Shown: positions 427-60,531 of the stretch, one piece after another
Numbering within the stretch: the first letter of the stretch is position 1
Layout: the number at the start of each line of letters is the position of its first letter
DNA from: a virus
DNA length: 64,000 nucleotides
Strand: one strand, 5' to 3'
IMG/VR virus record: IMGVR_UViG_3300032893_000005
Coordinates: 32,001-96,000 of that record
The notes under the pieces: model-generated
Database searches by the model: none
What the model was told of the DNA's origin: nothing
The model's input: only the letters and a program-made list of their open reading frames with translations
Program-made: the position numbers and the translations under genes

Positions 427-2232
427 ATGTACCAGAGAGAACTAACGAAAGCGAAGACTGCAGCCAAGACGATGACGTCCGACAAGGACAAACTTAAAGA
501 AATCGTCTTAAGCACCGTTGGACGAGCCGCACGCATGGTCGGCGATACTCTTGGTCCGAACGGAAAAGTTGTCTTGATCGAGAGGCAGGAAAACTTGCCG
601 CCGTTCACCACCAAAGACGGCATCACCGTCTTCAACTCGATGGCGTTCTCGGACCCAACTGCTCAGGCAGTGCTAGAAGTTGCTCGCGACTCGAGTTCCA
701 AGACTAACTCTGAGGCTGGCGACGGTACCACGACCGCAACGATCTTGGCTGAGGCCCTGATTCGACGCGGGTTCGAGTACATCGAGAAGAATCCCCACAC
801 GTCTCCGCAGAAGATCATGCGAGACCTAGAGTTCGCGTTCAAGCAGGTCGTAGAGCCTTTCATTAAGGAGAAGTCTCTCAAGATCCCAGCAAAGGACAGC
901 GACAACCTTCTTCGCAAAGTCTCGACGATCGCAACTAACAACGACGTTGAGATGACCGACGCCGTTCTCGAAGCGTTCGACCTCGTCGGACACAACGGGA
1001 ACATCACCGTGGCGGAGTCTCCCGGATCTTCCGGCTTCGCAGTGGAGCGCGTCGAAGGCTTCCCGATCGCAGTCGGCTTCGAAGAAACTGCCGGTCGCTA
1101 CATCGAAGAGTTCATCAACGACAAGGGCAACTACCGCATCCAGCTCGAGCGTCCGTGGTTCATCCTGTACAACGGAAAGCTCAACGAGCTTGGGCACCTC
1201 CTACCGATCATCGGCATCCTTGGTCAAGGATACGAGGACTCGATCAAGAAGAAGGAGAAGTTCAGCCCGAACGTGGTCGTAGTAGCTCACCAGTTCTCTG
1301 ACCAAGTCCTCTCTGCCTTCGCGTCGAACTTCGCTGACCCTGGCACGCTTAACATCGTACCCCTTCGTACTATGATGACTCAGCAGGCGAACAGCCCGTA
1401 CCACTTCCTGGTGGACCTGTCAGCCTTCACCGGTGCGACCGTGTTCGACCCGCTCACTAAACCGCTCGAGACGGCAAAGCTTGCAGACCTCGGCTTGGAG
1501 ACTATGGACTTGTTCGAGTCATACCGCTACCGCTCCGTCGTGTTTGGAAAACCGCACGAGGTGAACATCTTGGGTAGGGTAGAAGAACTCGAGCAGCAAG
1601 CGAAGCAGGCCGAGAGCATTCTGGACGGAGAGATCCTCCAGGAACGCATGGCACTCCTGACCGGAGGCATCGCTCGCCTGAAAGTACTCGGAAGTTCAGA
1701 AGCTGAGTTGAAGGAGAAGCGTCACCGCGTCGAAGATGCGGTCGCCTCCATCAAGGGAGCGCTCAAGTACGGCGCTCTGCCCGGCGGCGGCAAGACACTG
1801 CTTGCACTTCGCTCTAAGCTGCTCAGCTCTGACGTGTCAGACGCAGTGAAGCAGATCCTCGCTGAGTCCCTCGCAACTCCGTTCGTTCGCTTGCTCGACA
1901 ACGGCGGGTATAACCCCGACGAGATCGGCCAAGTTCTCGGCGGCATGGGAGTAGACCAAGAAGACTCGTTCATGACCACGTACGACGCCCTCAACCACAA
2001 GTTCGGAAACGCCGTATCAATCGGCGTGCTGGACTCCGCTTCTGCCGTCTTGATGGCGATCAAGAACAGCTTGGCCGTCGCCAAGATGCTCATGACCTTG
2101 TCAGGCATCGTAGTGTTCAAGCGCGATCATGCCTTGGAAGACAGCGTCAGCAAGAGTTACGCAGCCGAGCAAGAAGTTATGGAAGCCGCAGTTCAGCGAG
2201 CCTACAAAGAGAAGTTCGAGCCGCCGAACTAA
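427..2232 (+). CDS. groEL: GroEL-like chaperonin
   Basis: Motifs TLGPNGK, TKDGITV, GDGTTTAT, ERMALLTGGIA, ELKEKRHRVEDAV and PGGG. Confidence 0.95.
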   Translation: MYQRELTKAKTAAKTMTSDKDKLKEIVLSTVGRAARMVGDTLGPNGKVVLIERQENLPPFTTKDGITVFNSMAFSDPTAQAVLEVARDSSSKTNSEAGDGTTTATILAEALIRRGFEYIEKNPHTSPQKIMRDLEFAFKQVVEPFIKEKSLKIPAKDSDNLLRKVSTIATNNDVEMTDAVLEAFDLVGHNGNITVAESPGSSGFAVERVEGFPIAVGFEETAGRYIEEFINDKGNYRIQLERPWFILYNGKLNELGHLLPIIGILGQGYEDSIKKKEKFSPNVVVVAHQFSDQVLSAFASNFADPGTLNIVPLRTMMTQQANSPYHFLVDLSAFTGATVFDPLTKPLETAKLADLGLETMDLFESYRYRSVVFGKPHEVNILGRVEELEQQAKQAESILDGEILQERMALLTGGIARLKVLGSSEAELKEKRHRVEDAVASIKGALKYGALPGGGKTLLALRSKLLSSDVSDAVKQILAESLATPFVRLLDNGGYNPDEIGQVLGGMGVDQEDSFMTTYDALNHKFGNAVSIGVLDSASAVLMAIKNSLAVAKMLMTLSGIVVFKRDHALEDSVSKSYAAEQEVMEAAVQRAYKEKFEPPN

Positions 2233-5013: not shown

Positions 5014-5298
5014 ATGGACGAAGCTAAAGAGAACAAGCTGCAGAAGCTGATGAAGAAGGTCGAGGAGACTTTCGTCGATTCAGTTCGTGCTGCGAGCAAC
5101 GAGAAGTTACGTGACGAGATCATCAAGTTGACCGGCGAGATCGACGAGCAGATGGAGTCGAAGAAGAACAACACCGTACTTGCAGAGCACCGCGCCAACG
5201 CGAAGGCTTTGGCTGACGGATACAACAACGTGATCAAGGATCGCAAAGACCGCATCTCATTGATCATGCTTCTGCTGGAGAGTCGGGGAAACCTGTGA
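5014..5298 (+). CDS. small coiled-coil protein
   Basis: AAGGAG RBS; helical charged sequence. Confidence 0.65.
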   Translation: MDEAKENKLQKLMKKVEETFVDSVRAASNEKLRDEIIKLTGEIDEQMESKKNNTVLAEHRANAKALADGYNNVIKDRKDRISLIMLLLESRGNL

Positions 5299-6218
5299 AA
5301 CTTTTCGCCCCGGTCCTTATGTTCCTCGCACTTCCCTCGCTGGCGATCGCCGAGCAGAACATCATTCAGAGAGTTGCTCCGAGCATCCACAAGGTCATTA
5401 CCTTCAAGAACCGTAAGGAAGACGACGTTAGTGGGTACGCCACTGCGTTCTTCGCAAAGCTACCTGACGGAAAAGTTCTCGGCATCACCAACAACCACGT
5501 CTGCGCCGTGATGATCGGAAAAGGTCGCGAGACGTTTCTTCGACTCGTCGACAGTAAGGAGAAGATCAACTACGACAAGGAAGCCTTGAAGGTCGACAAG
5601 ATCTCCATGGCCATGGGCGAAGACATCTGCTTCTTCTCCGTGAAGGGAGAGCCCGGCTCTTACCTCGAACTAGGCAACGACGTCACGAAGCTGGACAAGA
5701 TCTCTGTGGTCGGCTATCCCGGCATGCAGTTTAACATCATAGCCGAAGACGGTTACTCGTCCGACTCCATCACCCTGAACGAGGCCGCTGATTTAGTTAA
5801 ATGCCTTGGACCAGTCAACAACGAGTTCGACTACCTGATGTGCAACTCATTCAAAGGCGTGACCTTAAGTTTTCACGACGTTAGTCAGTTCCAGATCACT
5901 CCGAACATTGGGCCAGGATTTTCTGGTTCTCCAGTGATCGATCCACAAGGTAAAGTCATAGGTCTTATCGCAAGGTACGTTGAGCCTACTGAGGAGTACA
6001 CGAACGGACACGGCCTGTTCATACCAGTAAGTAAGATCAAGAAGTACGCCGAGAAGGTCGAACTCTTGAGTCCTGATGATAACCGTGTCATACTGTTCAA
6101 CTTCACTAGAAACGTAGGCATCGGCATCCATGAGTTCCTGGAGTACCAGCAGCGCGAGCGAGAGCAGTTCATCAAAGAATTACCGAAGAGGTTGATGCGT
6201 GAAAGTAATGGCCCTTGA
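5295..6218 (+). CDS. secreted trypsin-like serine protease
   Basis: N-terminal signal peptide; catalytic triad contexts TNNHVC, EDIC and GFSGSP. Confidence 0.88.
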   Translation: MKLFAPVLMFLALPSLAIAEQNIIQRVAPSIHKVITFKNRKEDDVSGYATAFFAKLPDGKVLGITNNHVCAVMIGKGRETFLRLVDSKEKINYDKEALKVDKISMAMGEDICFFSVKGEPGSYLELGNDVTKLDKISVVGYPGMQFNIIAEDGYSSDSITLNEAADLVKCLGPVNNEFDYLMCNSFKGVTLSFHDVSQFQITPNIGPGFSGSPVIDPQGKVIGLIARYVEPTEEYTNGHGLFIPVSKIKKYAEKVELLSPDDNRVILFNFTRNVGIGIHEFLEYQQREREQFIKELPKRLMRESNGP

Positions 6219-10501: not shown

Positions 10502-13500
10502 ATGTCATACTTTAAGCAACTCATAAATCCACACAGTCACACGCACTATTCATTGGATGGCGCTGCGACAGTTGAGGACGTAGTCAAGCGAACCAAAGAG
10601 CTTGGTGCTACTCACGTCGCCGTGACGGAGCATGGAAACATGAACTCCGCGCTCGAGCTGTTCGAGAAGGCGGGTAAGTCAGGCCTTAAGCCCATCTGTG
10701 GGATCGAACTCTACGTTCAGTCGCCGTTCTTGGAAGAGCTTCGCAAGATCGTTACGTTTGAAGTTCAGCAGTCAGGAAAGATAAAGGATGCCGAAGACCT
10801 CGAGAAGAAGGTCGAGAAGGCTATGAAGAACGAGTACGTTCACCTCACCGTCCATTTCAAGGACGAGTGGGCCTACCAGTACTTCTGCAAGCTTACTCCT
10901 GCGATGGAAGAGCGAGCCGTGGTCAAGTGGGGAGAGCGCAAGCCGATCGCTACCCTCGAAGAGATCCGAGGAGCTGCCGGTCACATAACTATCTGCTCGT
11001 CATGCCTGATCGGGATGACTCAGAAGTTCATCCTCCCTCGCAAGAAGTCTGGCATCGCCACTCCAGAGCTGGCCGAGAAGGCTTACAGGATCATACGCGA
11101 GATAGCAGGGAAGGATGACTTCTACGTAGAGATCTTTCCTCACGAGATTACCCACGAGTGGTCTCGTCCCGACAAGGACAAGCCTGGTACCGGCAAGTTC
11201 GTTCCGCACGAGTGCACGCAGTACGCACCAGACGGCGACATCCAGAAGCCAGCCAACGAGTTCATGATCCACCTAGCCAACAAGTACAACGACCCGATCA
11301 TAGTATCACTGGACTCTCACTTCGCTTACCCAGAACAGAAGATCGTTCAAGATGCCCGGCTCGGTAACGGTGACGAGAACTGGAAGTTCTACAACTCGTA
11401 CCACATCCTTACGTCTCAAGAGGCATTCCAGTCACTCAACAAGACGCTGAAGGTCGACAAGAAGACATTCGAGGGATGGATCGATAACTCGTACAAGTTC
11501 GGCAGCCGGTTCGACAACTTCAAGCTGGTGACCTCGAAGCAGCGCTGGGTTCTCCAGCCGCTCCCTCCAAACTGGCAAGAACTTCTCCTCAAGTACATCG
11601 AAGCCTTCGGTCGAATGGACTGGAATAACCAAGCCATGCTCGAGCGTCTCAAGTACGAGATCGACGTTCTGGCAAACAACGGCAAGCTCAACCTAATGTC
11701 ATACTTCTTCACCGTGATGGACATAGCAGAGTTCTGCCGTAACAACGACGTCCTTATGAACGTGAGGGGATCTGCTGGCGGCGTACTCCTGCTCTACCTC
11801 GTAGGCGTGAGCGCCGTAAATCCTCTGAAGCATAACCTGTCGTTCGAGCGCTTCCTGACTACTGGCCGCATCAAGGCAAACACCCTGCCAGACGTGGACA
11901 TGGACATCTCCGACCAAGACAAGGTATTCGAGTATCTGACGAACAAGTACGGAGACGCCTTCTGCAGGATCTCAGTAGATTCACAGCTCAAGCTCAAGTC
12001 ATCGATCCAAGACGCTGAGCGCGTTAAGTTTGGCAAAGTTCGACCTGAAACTATGAAGCTGTGCAAGTCAATCAAGGCAGCTCCGACCGGCATGGACGAC
12101 TACTTATACGTCTTTGGCGGCGTCGACCAGCAGGGAAACCCGGTCATAGGCTTACTCGAGACCCATAAAGGCCTCAAAGATTACGCAGAGAACAATCCTG
12201 AAGTCTGGAAGCAAGTAGTGGAGATGTTGGGCATCATTCGACAGAAGAGCCAGCACGCTTGTGGCGTGGTTATCGCTGACAGGCCAGTCCAGGACTACGT
12301 TCCTGTGACCAAGGTTGGCGGAGTCCGAGTAACCGGCTTCTCCCCGAAGCAGCTCGAGGCTGCAGGCCTTGTGAAGCTGGACCTACTAGGCCTAAACACC
12401 CTTCGAGACATGAACTTATGCCTGAAGCTGATCAAGGAGCGCCACGGCGTTACCCTGGACTGGAGCAATCTGCCGTACGACGAGGAGTGCTTCAGGTGGT
12501 TCGCTGAAGGAAAGGTCGCTGGCGTATTCCAGTTCGACTCCTTCACGGCAATCCCCCTCCTCAAGGGAATAAAGCCGAGGGACATAGACGGGCTCTCTGC
12601 TACCACGGCTCTTGGCCGACCAGGTACGACCGACGCTCCTGAGAGCGCAACTTCCAGCCGTACCTTAGCCGACGTGTTCGTTGCTCGAGCGCAGGGCGAG
12701 AAGATTCGGTACGTCAACGATGACCTTGAGCCAATCTTGAAAGAAACATATGGCATCGCACTCTACCAAGAGCAGACGATCCAGATCTTCCGTGACCTGG
12801 CGAACTACACCGCAGAAGACGGTGAAGGTGTTCGTCGCGGTATCGGTAAGAAGGATGCTGACCTACTCGCCAAGTATACCAAGGACCTCAAGGACAAGGT
12901 TCTGGCGCGTGGCTGGACCGAGGAGCAGGTTCAACTTCTCATGGACCAGATCATGGCGAGTTCCCGGTACTCGTTCAACAAGTCTCACTCGACCAGCTAC
13001 GCTTACGTCGCATACGCTGGCATGTACCTGAAGATTCACTACCCTCTTGAGTTCTGGACATCGATCTTGACCTTTGCTTCTAAGAAAGACCTCAAAGACT
13101 ACTGGACGCACGTAGAAGACTTCGTGAAGTATCCTGACGTCAACAGGTCGAAGGAGACTTTCCAGATCGCCAAGAGGGAAGACGGCACTGAGTACATCCA
13201 GTCTCCGATCAACTTGATCGATGGAGTTGGACCGGCCACAGCCAAGGAGATCATCAACAAGGCACCATACGCCTCGCTCGAAGACTTCGTTAAGCGCATC
13301 AATCGACGCATCGTTAACAAGAAGATCGTAACTCGACTGGTGTTCTCTGGAACTATGGACTGCCTGATGCCAGCAGGCCTTAACGACGCTGAGAAGCTCG
13401 ACCTCTACCTTCAGACGAAGGCCCTGGTGGACAACGAGAAGAAGGAAGCTGTCCCAGCCCAGTACCTCTCGTTCACTCCGCTCATGAACTTCCTATTCAA

Positions 13501-13951
13501 GAAGGCCATCTTCAAGGTCTTCAAGGAAGACGTAACACCGCTTACGCTACCGATCTTGGCAGACCGTAGGCTCATCGCGCAGCGCGGCAACTACCTGGTA
13601 TACAAGGACCCAAACAGTAAGAAGCTTGATAACGCACCGCTCATAACGCCTAGCGACTACGAAGTATATGCAGAGGACGAAGACCTCACTGCTACCGTTG
13701 CAATGGTCGCGTACGTGACTGAGTGCGAGGAGAAGTCGTTCGCTGAAGGTTCAAAGACCATGATGAAGCTTACCCTTGAAGCCGGAGACTCGACCATCGA
13801 AACGGTAAAGTTCCCATCATGGGGAGAGACTGAACATGGGGTTGACAAAGACATAGATGGAAGCGTAGCATTGATTGTGATGACGAAGAAGTTCCAGAAG
13901 AACTTCGTAATCGATAAGATCATGAAGCTCGAGAAGATCGAAAACTTCTAA
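10502..13951 (+). CDS. dnaE: DNA polymerase III alpha subunit (family C)
   Basis: PHP domain HSHTHYSLDG; RGSAGG, FERFL, PDVDMD, HACGVVI, KLDLLGL and FNKSHS. Confidence 0.97.
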   Translation: MSYFKQLINPHSHTHYSLDGAATVEDVVKRTKELGATHVAVTEHGNMNSALELFEKAGKSGLKPICGIELYVQSPFLEELRKIVTFEVQQSGKIKDAEDLEKKVEKAMKNEYVHLTVHFKDEWAYQYFCKLTPAMEERAVVKWGERKPIATLEEIRGAAGHITICSSCLIGMTQKFILPRKKSGIATPELAEKAYRIIREIAGKDDFYVEIFPHEITHEWSRPDKDKPGTGKFVPHECTQYAPDGDIQKPANEFMIHLANKYNDPIIVSLDSHFAYPEQKIVQDARLGNGDENWKFYNSYHILTSQEAFQSLNKTLKVDKKTFEGWIDNSYKFGSRFDNFKLVTSKQRWVLQPLPPNWQELLLKYIEAFGRMDWNNQAMLERLKYEIDVLANNGKLNLMSYFFTVMDIAEFCRNNDVLMNVRGSAGGVLLLYLVGVSAVNPLKHNLSFERFLTTGRIKANTLPDVDMDISDQDKVFEYLTNKYGDAFCRISVDSQLKLKSSIQDAERVKFGKVRPETMKLCKSIKAAPTGMDDYLYVFGGVDQQGNPVIGLLETHKGLKDYAENNPEVWKQVVEMLGIIRQKSQHACGVVIADRPVQDYVPVTKVGGVRVTGFSPKQLEAAGLVKLDLLGLNTLRDMNLCLKLIKERHGVTLDWSNLPYDEECFRWFAEGKVAGVFQFDSFTAIPLLKGIKPRDIDGLSATTALGRPGTTDAPESATSSRTLADVFVARAQGEKIRYVNDDLEPILKETYGIALYQEQTIQIFRDLANYTAEDGEGVRRGIGKKDADLLAKYTKDLKDKVLARGWTEEQVQLLMDQIMASSRYSFNKSHSTSYAYVAYAGMYLKIHYPLEFWTSILTFASKKDLKDYWTHVEDFVKYPDVNRSKETFQIAKREDGTEYIQSPINLIDGVGPATAKEIINKAPYASLEDFVKRINRRIVNKKIVTRLVFSGTMDCLMPAGLNDAEKLDLYLQTKALVDNEKKEAVPAQYLSFTPLMNFLFKKAIFKVFKEDVTPLTLPILADRRLIAQRGNYLVYKDPNSKKLDNAPLITPSDYEVYAEDEDLTATVAMVAYVTECEEKSFAEGSKTMMKLTLEAGDSTIETVKFPSWGETEHGVDKDIDGSVALIVMTKKFQKNFVIDKIMKLEKIENF

Positions 13952-28967: not shown

Positions 28968-29193
28968 GCTCCGACCGCTTGGTCAGGTAACCCAGGACAT
29001 GGAACCCCTCCTGTTCGAGATGTGCGACGATCATGACCTTCAGCACGGGGAGATCCTTGGCCTGGTCAAGGCTTGGCTGGACATCCACTACCCGGCTGGA
29101 CGCGAAGAGTACGTTGACGGCAGTGGACATCCTGTGGTAAAGATCGTAGAGTATAGGCCTGTAACACAAACTCCTAAGGAGAAGAAAAAATGA
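28948..29193 (+). CDS. hypothetical protein
   Basis: Collinear ORF. Confidence 0.6.
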   Translation: MAKMSRKLRPLGQVTQDMEPLLFEMCDDHDLQHGEILGLVKAWLDIHYPAGREEYVDGSGHPVVKIVEYRPVTQTPKEKKK

Positions 29194-29618
29194 AGAAGTT
29201 GCTCTTAGCGGCCATCGCCGCCGCAGTCGTCCTCGCAGGTACGGTGCAGTATGCCGCGTACCAAGTTGCTCACCAGTCGTACGTCACCCAGCTCACCTCG
29301 AAGGAGCAGTTGACGAAGAGCCTTCAGGATCTTCAGACTAGCAAGCTCACTACGGCTCTAATTCTTGTCACCAGCGGCGACAAGGAGATGGAAGCTATGT
29401 TCAAGGCATCGGCTAAGAAGTACCACGGCAAGATCTTGTTCTTGGAAGTCGATCCTTCTAAAGTTCAGGAAGCCTCCGTTGGCGAAGACCCCGCAGTGGT
29501 GGTCGTCGACAAGGTCGTCGGCCTGCAAGTTCTGCGCGGTAAGGCGCCGAGCCAGCAAGCCCTCGACAACGTGATCGAGCAGCTACTCGCCATCAACGGA
29601 CAGTTCCAGCGTAAGTAG
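29190..29618 (+). CDS. exported thioredoxin-fold protein lacking CXXC
   Basis: Signal peptide; KYHGKILFLEVD...PAVVVV thioredoxin-like pattern; no Cys. Confidence 0.5.
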   Translation: MKKLLLAAIAAAVVLAGTVQYAAYQVAHQSYVTQLTSKEQLTKSLQDLQTSKLTTALILVTSGDKEMEAMFKASAKKYHGKILFLEVDPSKVQEASVGEDPAVVVVDKVVGLQVLRGKAPSQQALDNVIEQLLAINGQFQRK

Positions 29619-31495: not shown

Positions 31496-31924
31496 ATGGC
31501 ATATAACCCTGAAAGCAGTAGAAAGTGGTATCAGAAAAATCGCGAAAAACGACTCGCAGCGATGCTGGAGAGGTATCAAGACCCTGAAGTAAAGAAACGA
31601 AAACAGGAATATGACCGTCAAAGGCGACAGCGCCTGAAGGATGCAGGAGAAAAACAGTTTTCAGAAGCTCAGAGGCAGACCCACTACCGAAAACGGTACG
31701 GTATAGATATAAATATTTACGAAAAAATGTTAGAAAGTCAAAACGGCTGTTGTGCTATATGCGGGACGGCTCAAGCAGAATTAAAGAAAACTTTAGCCGT
31801 AGACCATTGTCATGTGACAGGCAGGGTGCGCGGTCTTTTATGTGATCCATGCAATAAAGGTTTAGGTTACTTCAGAGATAGTTTAGAGATTATGAGTAGG
31901 GCCATAGATTATCTTAAGGATTAA
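31496..31924 (+). mobile_element. endonuclease VII-family homing endonuclease
   Basis: QNGCCAIC, VDHCHVTGRVRGLLCDPCNKGLG; AT-rich. Confidence 0.9.
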
Positions 31925-33155: not shown

Positions 33156-33373
33156 AGACTAGAACGCCCGCAAATAATCGCAAGAACTTTCGTCGCGCCC
33201 GCGCAATCAAGCGCTTAGAGGCTCGACTTAAGCTCTCTGACTCGGAGATCTTTAAGATCGCCAAGTCGCTCAAGCCCGGAACAAACGACGGCATCGTCGA
33301 CTATCGTAAGAGGATGAACGACGAGCTGGAGCGTACGAAGAAGATTCAAATTACAAAGGGAGGAAACCTATGA
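33152..33373 (+). CDS. small basic protein
   Basis: Translationally coupled ORF. Confidence 0.55.
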   Translation: MKTRTPANNRKNFRRARAIKRLEARLKLSDSEIFKIAKSLKPGTNDGIVDYRKRMNDELERTKKIQITKGGNL

Positions 33374-34077
33374 AAACAGTAACTTACCTATCACTTCTGA
33401 TCGCCATGATGATGCTGGCCGCTTGCGGTCGCATGGAGAGTACCGACTACGTGGCTGGACCACAGGGACCAACTGGTCCGCAAGGGCCTCAGGGACCTGC
33501 TGCACCCGCTCCGACGCCGAGCGCTATCCAGCAGATCGTCGACTCTGAGAACGCTTACCGCGCTACTCTGGGCGAAGCTCCGCTTACTCCGGGTCTATCG
33601 TGCCAGGTCGTTGCCGTAGCTTCCGGCACGTACCTGTCCAGCTCGAGTCCGGGATACACTGCCGCACAAGCGATCGTCACGACAGGACCGACGTACTCGT
33701 ACCTCTTGTCGACCTCGATCAACCAGGCTAACGTGGCGGGAACTGCAGGCAACAGCCTCATCGATCCTGAGATTCGTCCACTGTTCTTGAACAACAACTA
33801 CCGCATCGTGTGCACGGGCCAACTGGTAGTGGCAGAAGACGGATACTACGGGTTCTCAACGTCTTCTGACGACGGGTCGCTCCTGTACATCGACGGAACA
33901 CTGGTCGTAGACAACGACGGAGCCCACGGCATCCAGACCGTTTCAGGAACCAAGCTGCTCGAGGCTGCCGTCACGCACTCCTTCACCTTATACTACGCGG
34001 AGAGCGCTGGCGGTAACATAGCGATGGTCTTGAACATGGACGGTTCTGTCTTGACTGCAGACCACCTCTACCACTAA
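33370..34077 (+). CDS. lipoprotein with short collagen-like repeat and PA14 domain
   Basis: Lipobox LAAC; GPQGPTGPQGPQGP; SDDGSLLYIDG..VVDNDGAH. Confidence 0.85.
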   Translation: MKTVTYLSLLIAMMMLAACGRMESTDYVAGPQGPTGPQGPQGPAAPAPTPSAIQQIVDSENAYRATLGEAPLTPGLSCQVVAVASGTYLSSSSPGYTAAQAIVTTGPTYSYLLSTSINQANVAGTAGNSLIDPEIRPLFLNNNYRIVCTGQLVVAEDGYYGFSTSSDDGSLLYIDGTLVVDNDGAHGIQTVSGTKLLEAAVTHSFTLYYAESAGGNIAMVLNMDGSVLTADHLYH

Positions 34078-53418: not shown

Positions 53419-54865
53419 AGACGGTTGACATCTACGAGCCTGGCGACAAGATCAGCCTCTACTCGTGCCCGCGCTGCGGTCGCAACGTCTACAACGAGGT
53501 GACAGGTGTCGACTGCTACGGAGCCAACGACATCACCACCTACATCAAGTGCCTAGGCTGTAACTTGCTCTACTGGTTCAGCTCGTTTACTGGCAGAACA
53601 AACACTAACGGGAACGATGCCGCATGAAAACTCTGAAGTACGTCTTAGGATCTGCTGCCATCCTCTACGCGATGGGGAGCCTAGTCATGCTAGTGTCTGG
53701 GCTTCAGGATAGTCAGTGGGGTCCGATGTTCTCAGACTGCAGGACTGACAAGAACCACCTTGAGCAGATCTTCTTACCGGCATACTCAGCCGGATGCTGG
53801 CTGGGGCACAAGTGAGCGCCGCAGACAAGAGGCACGCCAACCACGGAGAAGTATTCAGCGGGTCGATAATGATCCAGCAGGGCTACGCCATAGCCACGAT
53901 GAACACCTGCGCGATGTTCCAAGACCGTGGACTACACGGCTCATCAGGGGACGTCAACGGTAGAGCCATCATGATCAACAGGAGCAACTCTATAATGGGG
54001 TCGGAGGAAGCCTGGGAGAGGAACAAAGCTCTCTTGGAGTCCAACGATGACTAGGCAGCAGAAGATCAACTTGATCAAGGTCCTTCGATGTTCGCTCAAG
54101 TCAGAGAACATCACTGATTACTGTGACGGCGACGGAATAGGTTACTCCAGCACTGCAAGCTACTCCAGAGATGTAGCGGTGAAGCATAACGACGAGCTGA
54201 GGGCGTTCATAGCCATCTTGACTCGGGAAGTGAAGAAGAGTAAGATCTAGGTAGCTCTAGGAGGGACTTATGAGCGATCTGGCTGCATACCTTATCGGTT
54301 TCATCGGATTCTTGATCTTCGTCTACAAGATCATACGCGTTCTGACGCCTCAGAACGACCTCATGGACGCCATCGACACCTCCCTCCGCTTCGCTTACTG
54401 CGAACTCCGAGACGCTGAGGACGAGGTTGGCAAGCGCTTCTACATGAACCAGATTGAGACGCTCAACCGAGCACTCTCTGACGCCGCTCGAGGCGGTGTG
54501 CCGGAGGACTTCGCATGACCTGGGACAAGGCGCAACGCTTCTTCAACGGTGCGATCGTCGGCGCAGGCGCAGCCCTGATCATCGCCTTCGCTATCGGACA
54601 GGTAACTGCCTGGATGTTCTTCTGGTTCGGAACCTGGACCGGGCTAGCGATCGGAACTAAGATCGTCCGGTACTGGAGGAGTCGATGAAGACCACTAACC
54701 AGCCACTCATCCTACCAGCTCCGCGCAAGGAGAAGAACGGCGTCTTCTTTGACCCCTACAACTGGAAGTGCAACACCGACAACGGCAGGAAGAACTCCGC
54801 CGACTCACGCCGCAAGACGAAGTTCAAGCCACGAACGATCGCTGACGTCATCGCAGAGCGTGAGA

Positions 54866-55183
54866 ATGGCGAGCGATAACCACGTCCACATCTTCGTCAA
54901 GCCTTTCCAGATCTGGCCCTTCAAGAAGGTCTGGTATCGATCGCTCTGCGGTCGCGAGAAGTCAGAGTACCCGCACCTAGACCAGGCCGACCTGTCCTGC
55001 AAGCACTGCGCTGCTAGGCTCGAAGATCGCGGGGTCTGGAAGGAGTATCGCAGGTCCCAGATGAAGTTCTCAGCCCTCAAGTCTTTCAGAGAGGCTTTCG
55101 GCGAAGAGAAGTTTGAGAACAGGGCCTTCGCCCTTGAGAACCATGTCACCAGCCTCGACTACTTCACGGAGGATGAGGCATGA
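54866..55183 (+). CDS. Zn-finger protein, paralog A
   Basis: HIFVKPFQIWPFKKVWYRSLCG...CKHC. Confidence 0.6.
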   Translation: MASDNHVHIFVKPFQIWPFKKVWYRSLCGREKSEYPHLDQADLSCKHCAARLEDRGVWKEYRRSQMKFSALKSFREAFGEEKFENRAFALENHVTSLDYFTEDEA

Positions 55184-55404
55184 CTCACATCTTCCTGATG
55201 CCATTTCGCATCTACCCGTCCAAGAAGATATGGTACAAGTCCTTGTGCGGCGCTGAGAAGTCCGAGTCTCAGCAGGTCGGTTACACCAACTGTCACGTGT
55301 GCGATCACCTCAAGGAGCACAACCAAGTGCACATCATCAGGGCTCAGTTTGACCAGCACGTCACGAGTGCTCCGGTCAGCTTCAGGGTTCCGGTGATAGG
55401 ATGA
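55180..55404 (+). CDS. Zn-finger protein, paralog B
   Basis: HIFLMPFRIYPSKKIWYKSLCG...CHVC. Confidence 0.6.
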   Translation: MTHIFLMPFRIYPSKKIWYKSLCGAEKSESQQVGYTNCHVCDHLKEHNQVHIIRAQFDQHVTSAPVSFRVPVIG

Positions 55405-55868: not shown

Positions 55869-56315
55869 ATGGACAACTATCAGCAAGAGCGTGCTAAGGA
55901 AGCTGGTCGGATGATCGGCTTCACCGTCGGTGGAACGATCTCGTTCGTGATCCTGCTCCTGTTCTACATGATCGGCTGCCCGCAGTACAACGTGTACCAG
56001 CAGCGCATGGAAGGTGAAGCGCAGCTCGCTCACGCCGAGTACTCGAAGAAGGTTCAGGTCCAAGACGCCCTCGGTAAGCTCGAGGCTTCAAAGTCTCTGG
56101 CCGAAGTCGAGGTCACCCGCGCTGGCGGCGTGGCCCGAGCAAACAACATCATCGGCGACTCGCTCAAGAACAACGAAGCCTACCTCCGCTGGCTCTACAT
56201 CGAGGGCTTGAAGGAGAAGCAGGGCACTGAGGTCATCTACGTGCCGACGGAAGCCGGTCTTCCTATCCTCGAGGCTGGTAAGCGCGTGATGAAGCTCCAA
56301 GAGGAGAAGAAGTAA
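55869..56315 (+). CDS. membrane protein with SPFH/prohibitin-like coiled-coil C-terminus
   Basis: TM helix, then AGGVARANNIIGDSL..YLRWL..VIYVPTEAGLPILEAG. Confidence 0.7.
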   Translation: MDNYQQERAKEAGRMIGFTVGGTISFVILLLFYMIGCPQYNVYQQRMEGEAQLAHAEYSKKVQVQDALGKLEASKSLAEVEVTRAGGVARANNIIGDSLKNNEAYLRWLYIEGLKEKQGTEVIYVPTEAGLPILEAGKRVMKLQEEKK

Positions 56316-56677
56316 TGACCACCCGGAAGCAGTTTGAAGAAGCAGTCGAAGTAATCCAAGCAGCGCTCCGAGAGAAGCTGGTGATCGATGACCTCTATCA
56401 GCCCACAGGAGTGGACCAGGTTTACATCAACAGTCACACTGCTTGCCCCATAAATTACAGCAGCGACATCGACTTCGGTGGATGGACCGTCTGCGATAGC
56501 CGCAAGCTGTGCATTCGCACGGAAGCTGATGTTCTGAAAGAGCAGCTCGATCAAGCTGAGAAAGAACATAAGGAAAACTTGAGCAAAGTATCTACGGCAA
56601 ACATCCTGTCATCTCACTCTGCTACCAAGGTGGAAGAGCTGAAGATGAAGCTCGCTCAGCTCGGGAAGTATCCATGA
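56315..56677 (+). CDS. hypothetical protein
   Basis: Translationally coupled ORF. Confidence 0.55.
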   Translation: MTTRKQFEEAVEVIQAALREKLVIDDLYQPTGVDQVYINSHTACPINYSSDIDFGGWTVCDSRKLCIRTEADVLKEQLDQAEKEHKENLSKVSTANILSSHSATKVEELKMKLAQLGKYP

Positions 56678-57039
56678 ACCGTCGTGGCTTCATCCGTGGC
56701 ATGCTTGCGGCAGCAGCGCTCGCCGCTGTTCCGTTCAAGTGGGCGTTCAAGCAGACGTCCAAGGTCTTCACTGGCGCAAGGGCTAGGATCTTCATTAACG
56801 GTAAGTTAATCGCTTACACAGGCGAAGTTACCGTATCCTACGATCCCAAAGATTTATCCATGCATACTATTGGACAGTACAAACCTGAAGAAGTTAATCT
56901 AGGACCAGTTGAGTTCACTGCTACTGTCACGCGTGTAGTAAAGGGTTCTGAGTGGGACAAGCTCATGAGCCTTTCTGACGAAGACCGCGAAGCTCTCTTG
57001 AACGAGAATCCGCCAGTTCGTCGCGAGGACATCACATGA
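56674..57039 (+). CDS. twin-arginine signal fused to a tail-tube-like N-terminal segment
   Basis: MNRRGFIRGMLAAAALAA followed by KVFTGARARIFINGKLIAY...HTIGQYKPEEV...RVVKG. Confidence 0.6.
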   Translation: MNRRGFIRGMLAAAALAAVPFKWAFKQTSKVFTGARARIFINGKLIAYTGEVTVSYDPKDLSMHTIGQYKPEEVNLGPVEFTATVTRVVKGSEWDKLMSLSDEDREALLNENPPVRREDIT

Positions 57040-60012: not shown

Positions 60013-60531
60013 ATGAGTGACGAGATGTTCTCAAACTTTGGCTCTGACCAGTCTGCGGTCCTTGACACAAGCGCTGTCCTGACTCAGGAGATCATCGAAG
60101 AGGCCGCGCAGCGTTGCCTGGACAACTTTGGCCAGTACGATCCGCCTTACATGGTCAGTCCTGAGACCTACGCCCACCTTGAGCTGCACCATAACCCCGT
60201 CTTCTACGACATCGTAGTCGAAGCGTACGTCACGCACCGTGGCCGGGTATCCAAGCGCCGGTTTAAGAACATCCTAAAGATGCGCAAGAAGCTCTTCGCA
60301 AAGATCATGATGGAGCACCTGTCCAACGAGAACGCCCATACCGTAGGCCGCCAGATCTACATGGCGATGGGAGCCAAGGCTGCGTGCGAGGAACTCGAGA
60401 AGTACCAGGACTCACCGGCCAAGGAAGCGGCACTCGCCCTGGTTACCTCCAAGGACCCTATCCGCTTCACGACAGACCACGTCCCTACCGGCTTCAAGCT
60501 CTACCGAGGCGAAGATGGTACAGACACCTAA
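60013..60531 (+). CDS. protein whose N-terminus resembles an internal segment of a large-myophage major capsid protein
   Basis: DEMFSNFGSDQSAVL...LTQEIIEEAAQRCLDNFG...MVSPETY. Confidence 0.55.
   Translation: MSDEMFSNFGSDQSAVLDTSAVLTQEIIEEAAQRCLDNFGQYDPPYMVSPETYAHLELHHNPVFYDIVVEAYVTHRGRVSKRRFKNILKMRKKLFAKIMMEHLSNENAHTVGRQIYMAMGAKAACEELEKYQDSPAKEAALALVTSKDPIRFTTDHVPTGFKLYRGEDGTDT

Follow-up and report, generated by a model that had tools for sequence, protein, structure and literature searches.

A conserved phage gene family that joins a Tat-type leader to a truncated tail tube paralogue

Tail tube proteins are cytoplasmic assembly parts. Why would a phage encode a fragment of such a protein behind a leader of the twin-arginine type? 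The question is raised by a small gene on the plus strand of the DNA analyzed here, a stretch of 64,000 nucleotides (hereafter termed the window) that comprises bases 32001-96000 of a 154,091-bp IMG/VR viral contig (G000; 54% GC, estimated completeness 94%). The first-pass annotation had placed an open reading frame (ORF) at 56674-57039 on the plus strand, and its coordinates proved exact, as did the quoted 121-aa translation. The gene and its parts are listed below; positions prefixed by G000:C1 refer to the contig, all others to the window.

56674..57039, plus strand: whole gene, Tat-type leader and truncated tail-tube paralogue, 121 aa plus stop (from the ORF list and the sequence)
56674..56745, plus strand: leader, residues 1-24, with the n-region MNRRGFIR, the Ala-rich h-region GMLAAAALAAVPF, then K-W-A
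56755..56943, plus strand: tube-homologous core, residues 28-90, with an N-terminal strand, a beta-hairpin (TGARARIFINGK...), the IGQYKPEE motif and a strand ending in RVV
56944..57036, plus strand: C-terminal tail, residues 91-121, acidic, with helices predicted at residues 92-98 and 102-111 (AF2 secondary structure)

The nearest named phage is Myxococcus phage Mx1. The DnaE-type (Pol III alpha-like) replicative polymerase of the contig, encoded at 10502-13951 on the plus strand, is 32% identical to that of Mx1, its closest named relative, and the 935-aa sheath homologue shares 39% identity, over the full length, with the protein annotated as tail sheath in Mx1. Judging by these sequence similarities, the contig is a large myophage distantly related to Mx1. 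The plus-strand block that holds the gene also encodes GroEL, an SbcC-like protein, a primase, a helicase and the DnaE-type polymerase; the GroEL-type chaperonin (427-2232, plus strand) matches phrog_5725 with an E-value of 2.5e-91. The opposite strand carries the genes for head, sheath, tube, baseplate and fibre. The position of the gene is in a block of small ORFs on the replication-gene strand, outside the late structural modules. The stop codon of the upstream ORF overlaps its ATG (ATGA), and its own stop codon overlaps the ATG of the next ORF; genes of phage operons are typically coupled as tightly as this. A scan for promoters and terminators yielded a signal at chance level, and no tRNAs were found on the contig outside the window.

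The surrounding block includes several other small genes. No Pfam matches were found for ten small ORFs neighbouring the gene. Two genes upstream, a 148-aa protein with an N-terminal transmembrane segment (55869-56315, plus strand) matches phrog_11227 ('protease') with an E-value of 2.8e-48 and looks SPFH/band-7-like by eye. The adjacent ORFs at 54749-55183 and 55180-55404 (plus strand) share a Cys-containing module of ~40 residues (E 2e-12), which points to a tandem duplication. In an all-against-all comparison of 202 ORFs, residues 3-47 of a 172-aa ORF from the same block (60013-60531, plus strand) matched residues 191-235 of the major head protein (E 5e-4). The latter is encoded at G000:C1:14003-15391 and matches phrog_752 with an E-value of 3e-41. 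The 172-aa ORF may be a second small ORF that carries a piece of a virion protein.

Three genes of the genome are tube-like; they encode a 155-aa tube, a 146-aa paralogue and the leader-bearing protein of 121 aa. The first two are as follows.

G000:C1:147465-147929, minus strand: real tail tube, 155 aa, directly downstream of the 935-aa sheath homologue
G000:C1:111314-111754 (L002:1249-1686), minus strand, outside the window: second tube-like paralogue, 146 aa, full-length, in the baseplate and fibre module; matches phrog_985 (virion structural protein) with an E-value of 8.5e-6

The 155-aa protein matches the solved Staphylococcus phage 812 tail tube (PDB 8q01; PMC12886913) from one end to the other. 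Because of this match and of its position right after the sheath homologue, we consider it the real tube. The 146-aa paralogue, for which PF26461 is listed, is conserved in Mx1 (WNM70276, annotated as hypothetical), after baseplate-J-like and kelch-repeat genes. Possible identities for it are a tube-initiator-like protein and a baseplate tube protein. The Pfam models for the sheath (PF04984) and for gp19 (PF06841) miss the sheath and the tube of this lineage. Other paralogous pairs were observed on the contig. Two HNH-like endonucleases (E 2e-20) are encoded at 31496-31924 in the window (plus strand) and at G000:C1:110849-111301 (minus strand), one of them directly beside the 146-aa tube paralogue. 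Two adjacent genes of the structural module, G000:C1:133632-134852 and 134854-136530 (minus strand, outside the window), encode paralogues of 406 and 558 aa (E 1e-65).

The similarity between the leader-bearing protein and tail tubes was found at several levels. BLASTP aligned residues 28-90 with residues 4-69 of the 155-aa tube of the same phage (E 3e-6, 31% identity). The tube profile matches the ORF with an E-value of 2e-6 over tube positions 3-69, and in the alignment the match reaches position ~90. A comparison of the leader-bearing family with the tube family by hhalign gave 98.1% (E 1e-13), and with the family of the second tube paralogue 95.5%. The family profile also matches the phage 812 tube structure 8q01 with an E-value of 1.5e-3; its match to XkdM (E 0.68) is not significant. 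The IGQYKPEE motif of this protein corresponds to LGRYxPxE in the family and in tubes. By these measures the tube similarity of residues 28-90 is well beyond chance. The homology claimed earlier for a tail-tube-like fragment is thereby borne out, and its description as a partial tube is right, in that only tube positions ~3-90 are present.

In comparison with phage 812, XkdM and gp19-type tubes, the gene is homologous over tube positions ~3-90. Of the tube elements it keeps the N-terminal strand, the beta-hairpin of ring stacking and lumen (GARAxxxINGK), LGRYxPxE, the strand that ends in RVV and one helix. The first helix of the C-terminal tail aligns with the tube helix (PKLQDLLNHED), where it lines up with LxxLL, in the combined alignment only. 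The tail is longer here than in the homologues, which stop just after this helix. In contrast to tubes, whose fold spans ~140-160 aa, the gene does not encode the C-terminal ~55 residues, which form three strands, nor an internal loop, and it adds a 24-residue Tat-type leader. It also differs in its location, away from the sheath in a non-structural block on the opposite strand, in its faster evolution and in being dispensable in relatives.

We considered whether the gene could be one half of a split tube gene, with the missing C-terminal part encoded downstream or in another frame. The tube profile found no match to tube positions 70-155 near the gene in any frame, that is, nothing past position 69. 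A split gene is ruled out, because the C-terminal part of the tube is not encoded nearby.

Structure prediction did not yield a confident fold. Two AF2 runs on two alignments gave a pLDDT of 60 each, with only the strands of the N-terminal hairpin formed. A Foldseek search of PDB with this model, whose low confidence makes the search uninformative, gave no match below an E-value of 3.5. The ESM Atlas model has a pLDDT of 0.41 and leads to gp19 and tube clusters at sub-threshold scores only. The tube homology thus rests on sequence statistics. The predictions do not support independent folding of the passenger, so that a defined surface for binding has to be assumed. A complex prediction for the 155-aa tube and residues 25-121 of the fragment scored 0.00; run without controls, it speaks neither for nor against binding.

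The twin-arginine motif of this member is N2-R3-R4-G5-F6-I7-R8. The motif of the family, N/T/D-R-R-x-F-[ILVM]-[KRQ], agrees with the Tat consensus, and in the homologue alignment R3, R4, F6 and P20 are at least 90% conserved; one homologue, P0012, as called, does not have the RR motif. The Pfam model TAT_signal (PF10518) matches residues 1-20 with 20.1 bits (E 5.7e-4), under its cut-off of 22.7, and TIGR01409 matches the leader with 14.6 bits (E 0.031), under its cut-off of 16.7. Within the family, PF10518 matches six of 11 members and TIGR01409 five of 11 (E-values up to 0.1), with best E-values of 1.5e-4 and 2.9e-4, respectively. The combination of RRxF with an N-terminal hydrophobic stretch was found in one of the 202 ORFs of the genome, namely this one.

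The region that follows the motif has features of Tat signals as well. The h-region GMLAAAALAAVPF has a mean Kyte-Doolittle hydropathy of 1.95, and family members have two to four (mostly three to four) Lys or Arg residues among the 12 residues that start right after Pro20 or its equivalent. This order, an Ala-rich segment of weak hydrophobicity and then a region rich in Lys and Arg, is the Sec-avoidance pattern of Tat signals, and plain Sec or YidC insertion is therefore disfavoured in either orientation. The twin-arginine leader that the first-pass annotation had described is of the Tat type at the sequence level, with a nearly invariant RR-x-F and with Tat models scoring just below their cut-offs. 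With known Tat signals (PF10518, TIGR01409, and the E. coli CueO leader in PDB 9e04, chain H) it shares the motif at residues 2-8, an Ala/Gly-rich h-region, a Pro near the end and basic residues after it. It differs from them in being short (~24 residues), in its sub-cut-off scores and in the lack of a conserved AxA. It is also phage-encoded, and its passenger is a fragment of a virion protein, not a cofactor enzyme.

We also looked for this leader in front of other passengers. In IMG/VR, a degenerate DNA pattern for RRGFIRGM matched only the contig of a known homologue and one place outside the listed ORFs of at least 60 aa on that strand. No ORF joining this leader to another passenger was obtained.

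No conserved AxA cleavage site was found in the family alignment. Inspection of the alignment by eye suggested a possible cleavage site, P-F-[T/K/Q/V]-W-[A/T/S], in most homologues; the present member has Lys at position -3. Signal peptidase cleavage after W23-A24 is possible, though this candidate site is poor in this member. A cut after A24 would put the mature N-terminus at the native N-terminus of the tube, according to the combined alignment. The leader may instead be retained as an uncleaved anchor; at ~13 residues, its hydrophobic segment is short to hold the protein stably in a membrane. The host is assumed to have a Tat system. Given such a system, the RR leader probably targets the protein to the host Tat translocon, so that it would face the periplasm, either anchored or released.

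Other candidates for envelope targeting were observed in the same strand block, at 5295-6218, 29190-29618 and 33370-34077 (plus strand). Two of them have Sec-like signal peptides, and one combines a lipobox (LAAC) with collagen-like GPQ repeats. From these predicted signals, several proteins of the phage appear to be directed to the envelope.

Both parts of the leader-bearing protein are under constraint. For the leader, pN/pS is 0.34 (pN 0.26, pS ~0.77, saturated; five loci with DNA). Since pS is saturated while pN is only 0.26, the leader is translated and constrained. For the hairpin and the tube-specific motifs pN/pS is 0.43, again with pS saturated. Mean pairwise identity is 51% in the leader vs. 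37% in the passenger, and within the passenger of the family the hairpin is 44% identical vs. 31% for the rest. As read from these substitution patterns, purifying selection acts on both the leader and the tube part.

The leader being the best-conserved part would agree with interference with the host Tat pathway. A strong leader on a poorly folding passenger could occupy the TatBC receptor and, as a means of host takeover, cut Tat export of the host, and a truncated fold for which predictors give no confident structure would suit such a plug. However, low model confidence with a shallow alignment does not show misfolding, and the constraint on the tube-specific motifs (pN/pS 0.43) would be needless for a mere plug. 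No precedent was found for interference of this kind, and we regard it as highly improbable.

The databases contain ~12 homologues of the same architecture, from metagenomic and viral contigs, with lengths of 66-121 aa (most of them 97-109 aa). For the shared region, a maximum likelihood tree places the leader-bearing proteins in a single group (support 86/90, recovered in 84% of bootstrap trees), apart from both the tubes and the second paralogue. They have terminal branches 2-4 times longer than the tubes do. The tree is compatible with one origin of the fusion, followed by faster divergence. As far as can be told from the alignments, the family is a conserved chimaera, in which a leader of the Tat consensus meets, where the native tube would begin, a diverged copy of the first ~90 residues (~60%) of this lineage's tail tube.

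A truncated gene that evolves faster than the tube could also be a decaying tube duplicate, with a chance hydrophobic N-terminus and no function. This is scarcely credible in view of the family. The architecture of leader and fragment is kept in ~12 clusters at 29-57% identity, a divergence that excludes assembly duplicates of one sequence. Synonymous sites are saturated and nonsynonymous change is low. The frame is intact, translational coupling is tight and RR-x-F is nearly invariant.

The distribution of the gene is patchy. Contigs that have it include the present one, a 65-kb fragment from IMG/VR (G005) and a JGI contig of 144 kb. It is missing from Mx1 and from two relatives whose genomes are nearly complete, G003 (169.6 kb, 100% complete) and G004 (154.8 kb, 96%). 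These three gene-less relatives all have the tube and, where seen, the second paralogue. No conserved neighbour or partner gene was found across five loci, and neither the gene nor the 3 kb around it gave a match in tblastn and megablast searches of a GenBank phage collection. Such a distribution shows the habits of an accessory conflict gene and not those of a core morphogenesis gene.

The same distribution bears on a possible role at the envelope in the phage's own cycle, either as a periplasmic regulator of lysis timing or at a membrane site of tail or baseplate assembly. The model for the former is the T4 antiholin RI, which has a cleavable Sec-type signal and binds the holin. RI is small (~100 aa), is made early and exported to the periplasm, and is linked to the sensing of superinfection (PMC8385771). 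The leader-bearing proteins resemble it in their size of ~100 aa, in the putative export or anchor segment at the N-terminus and in the non-late position of the gene, and small membrane proteins are encoded nearby (54270-54518, 54515-54688 and 55869-56315). However, the likeness to RI stops at size and putative export. No sequence similarity to RI or to holins was found, no link to a holin was seen, and no holin or endolysin gene is adjacent. A core function would also be hard to square with the absence of the gene from near-complete relatives and from Mx1. We therefore consider a role in the phage's own cycle distinctly unlikely.

The reading that we prefer is that the protein is an envelope-located tube mimic, which excludes or senses superinfecting related phages. 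We put the probability of this whole chain at roughly 35%. The gene would be expressed together with the non-late genes, as gene order suggests. The host Tat pathway would carry the protein across the inner membrane, as suggested by the leader sequence, and the protein would either stay on the outer face as an uncleaved anchor or be released to the periplasm. There the tube fragment could display the subunit surfaces made for the next tube ring, for the tape measure protein, or for the hub or initiator. When a second, related phage pushes its tube through the envelope, the fragment would engage components of the tip or the lumen of this tube. As a result, DNA delivery would be blocked (superinfection exclusion) or the attack would be reported.

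The leader, the non-late position, the patchy distribution, the faster evolution in comparison with the tube and the lack of a conserved neighbour all fit an envelope decoy or exclusion protein. The step of exclusion or sensing we infer from these accessory traits and by analogy with the envelope proteins Imm, Sp, gp15 and Ltp. We tentatively speculate that a folded tube fragment, exported by Tat and either periplasmic or anchored in the membrane, could cap or capture the conduit of incoming related phages, i.e. the tube tip, the hub or the tape measure protein, and so represent a new structural class of exclusion or sensing proteins, made from a recycled part of the virion.

T4 Imm and Sp, P22 SieA, HK97 gp15 and Ltp of Streptococcus phage TP-J34 are superinfection exclusion proteins located in the envelope. 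Such proteins are thought to act on the incoming injection apparatus, and Ltp targets the tape measure protein. Like these, the present gene is a small accessory non-structural phage gene with a membrane or export signal, here a predicted one, at the N-terminus of its product. Unlike them in sequence, it has no similarity to any of the five. To our knowledge, none of the five derives from a tail tube or uses a Tat leader. A literature search for Tat leaders on phage exclusion or tube proteins revealed no relevant precedent, and no description of a tube-mimic exclusion protein was found. If our reading is true, this would be, as far as we found, the first case described of a phage using a Tat leader to this end.

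The passenger could, on the other hand, be directed at immunity of the host cell and not at another phage. A decoy in the cytoplasm or on the inner face of the membrane could use the hairpin epitope for titration or misplacement of tube sensors such as Avs16 or DSR2-type proteins early in infection. The leader would then keep the fragment and its bound sensor tethered at the membrane, or pull both of them to the Tat machinery for removal in a hitchhiker style. Avs16 is reported to contact the tube's conserved beta-hairpin (PMC13581612), and the hairpin is the best-conserved part of the passenger (44% vs. 31% identity). The early-looking position of the gene and its patchy accessory distribution agree with such a decoy. 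The second early ORF with a short match to the major head protein (60013-60531, E 5e-4) hints at a wider use of virion pieces, although this capsid-fragment match is weak. However, the conserved RR-x-F of the Tat consensus has no obvious role in the cytoplasm, and a trap fits poorly with an export leader. A fragment that keeps the recognized epitope could equally trigger the sensor, and no tube sensor is known for the host of this phage. A sensor decoy is therefore a conceivable but unlikely explanation.

A conserved family that sends a piece of the tail tube to the envelope would be a new reuse of virion components in phage-phage or phage-host conflict. The family is small (~100 aa), easy to clone and amenable to standard localization and plating assays. 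If the protein acts against tube-sensing immunity of the Avs16 or DSR2 type, it would represent a new anti-defence principle. If exclusion or sensing is true, it would provide a handle on the tube tip and the tape measure protein in the periplasm during DNA delivery by contractile phages, and the few known mechanisms of exclusion would gain one that depends on Tat.
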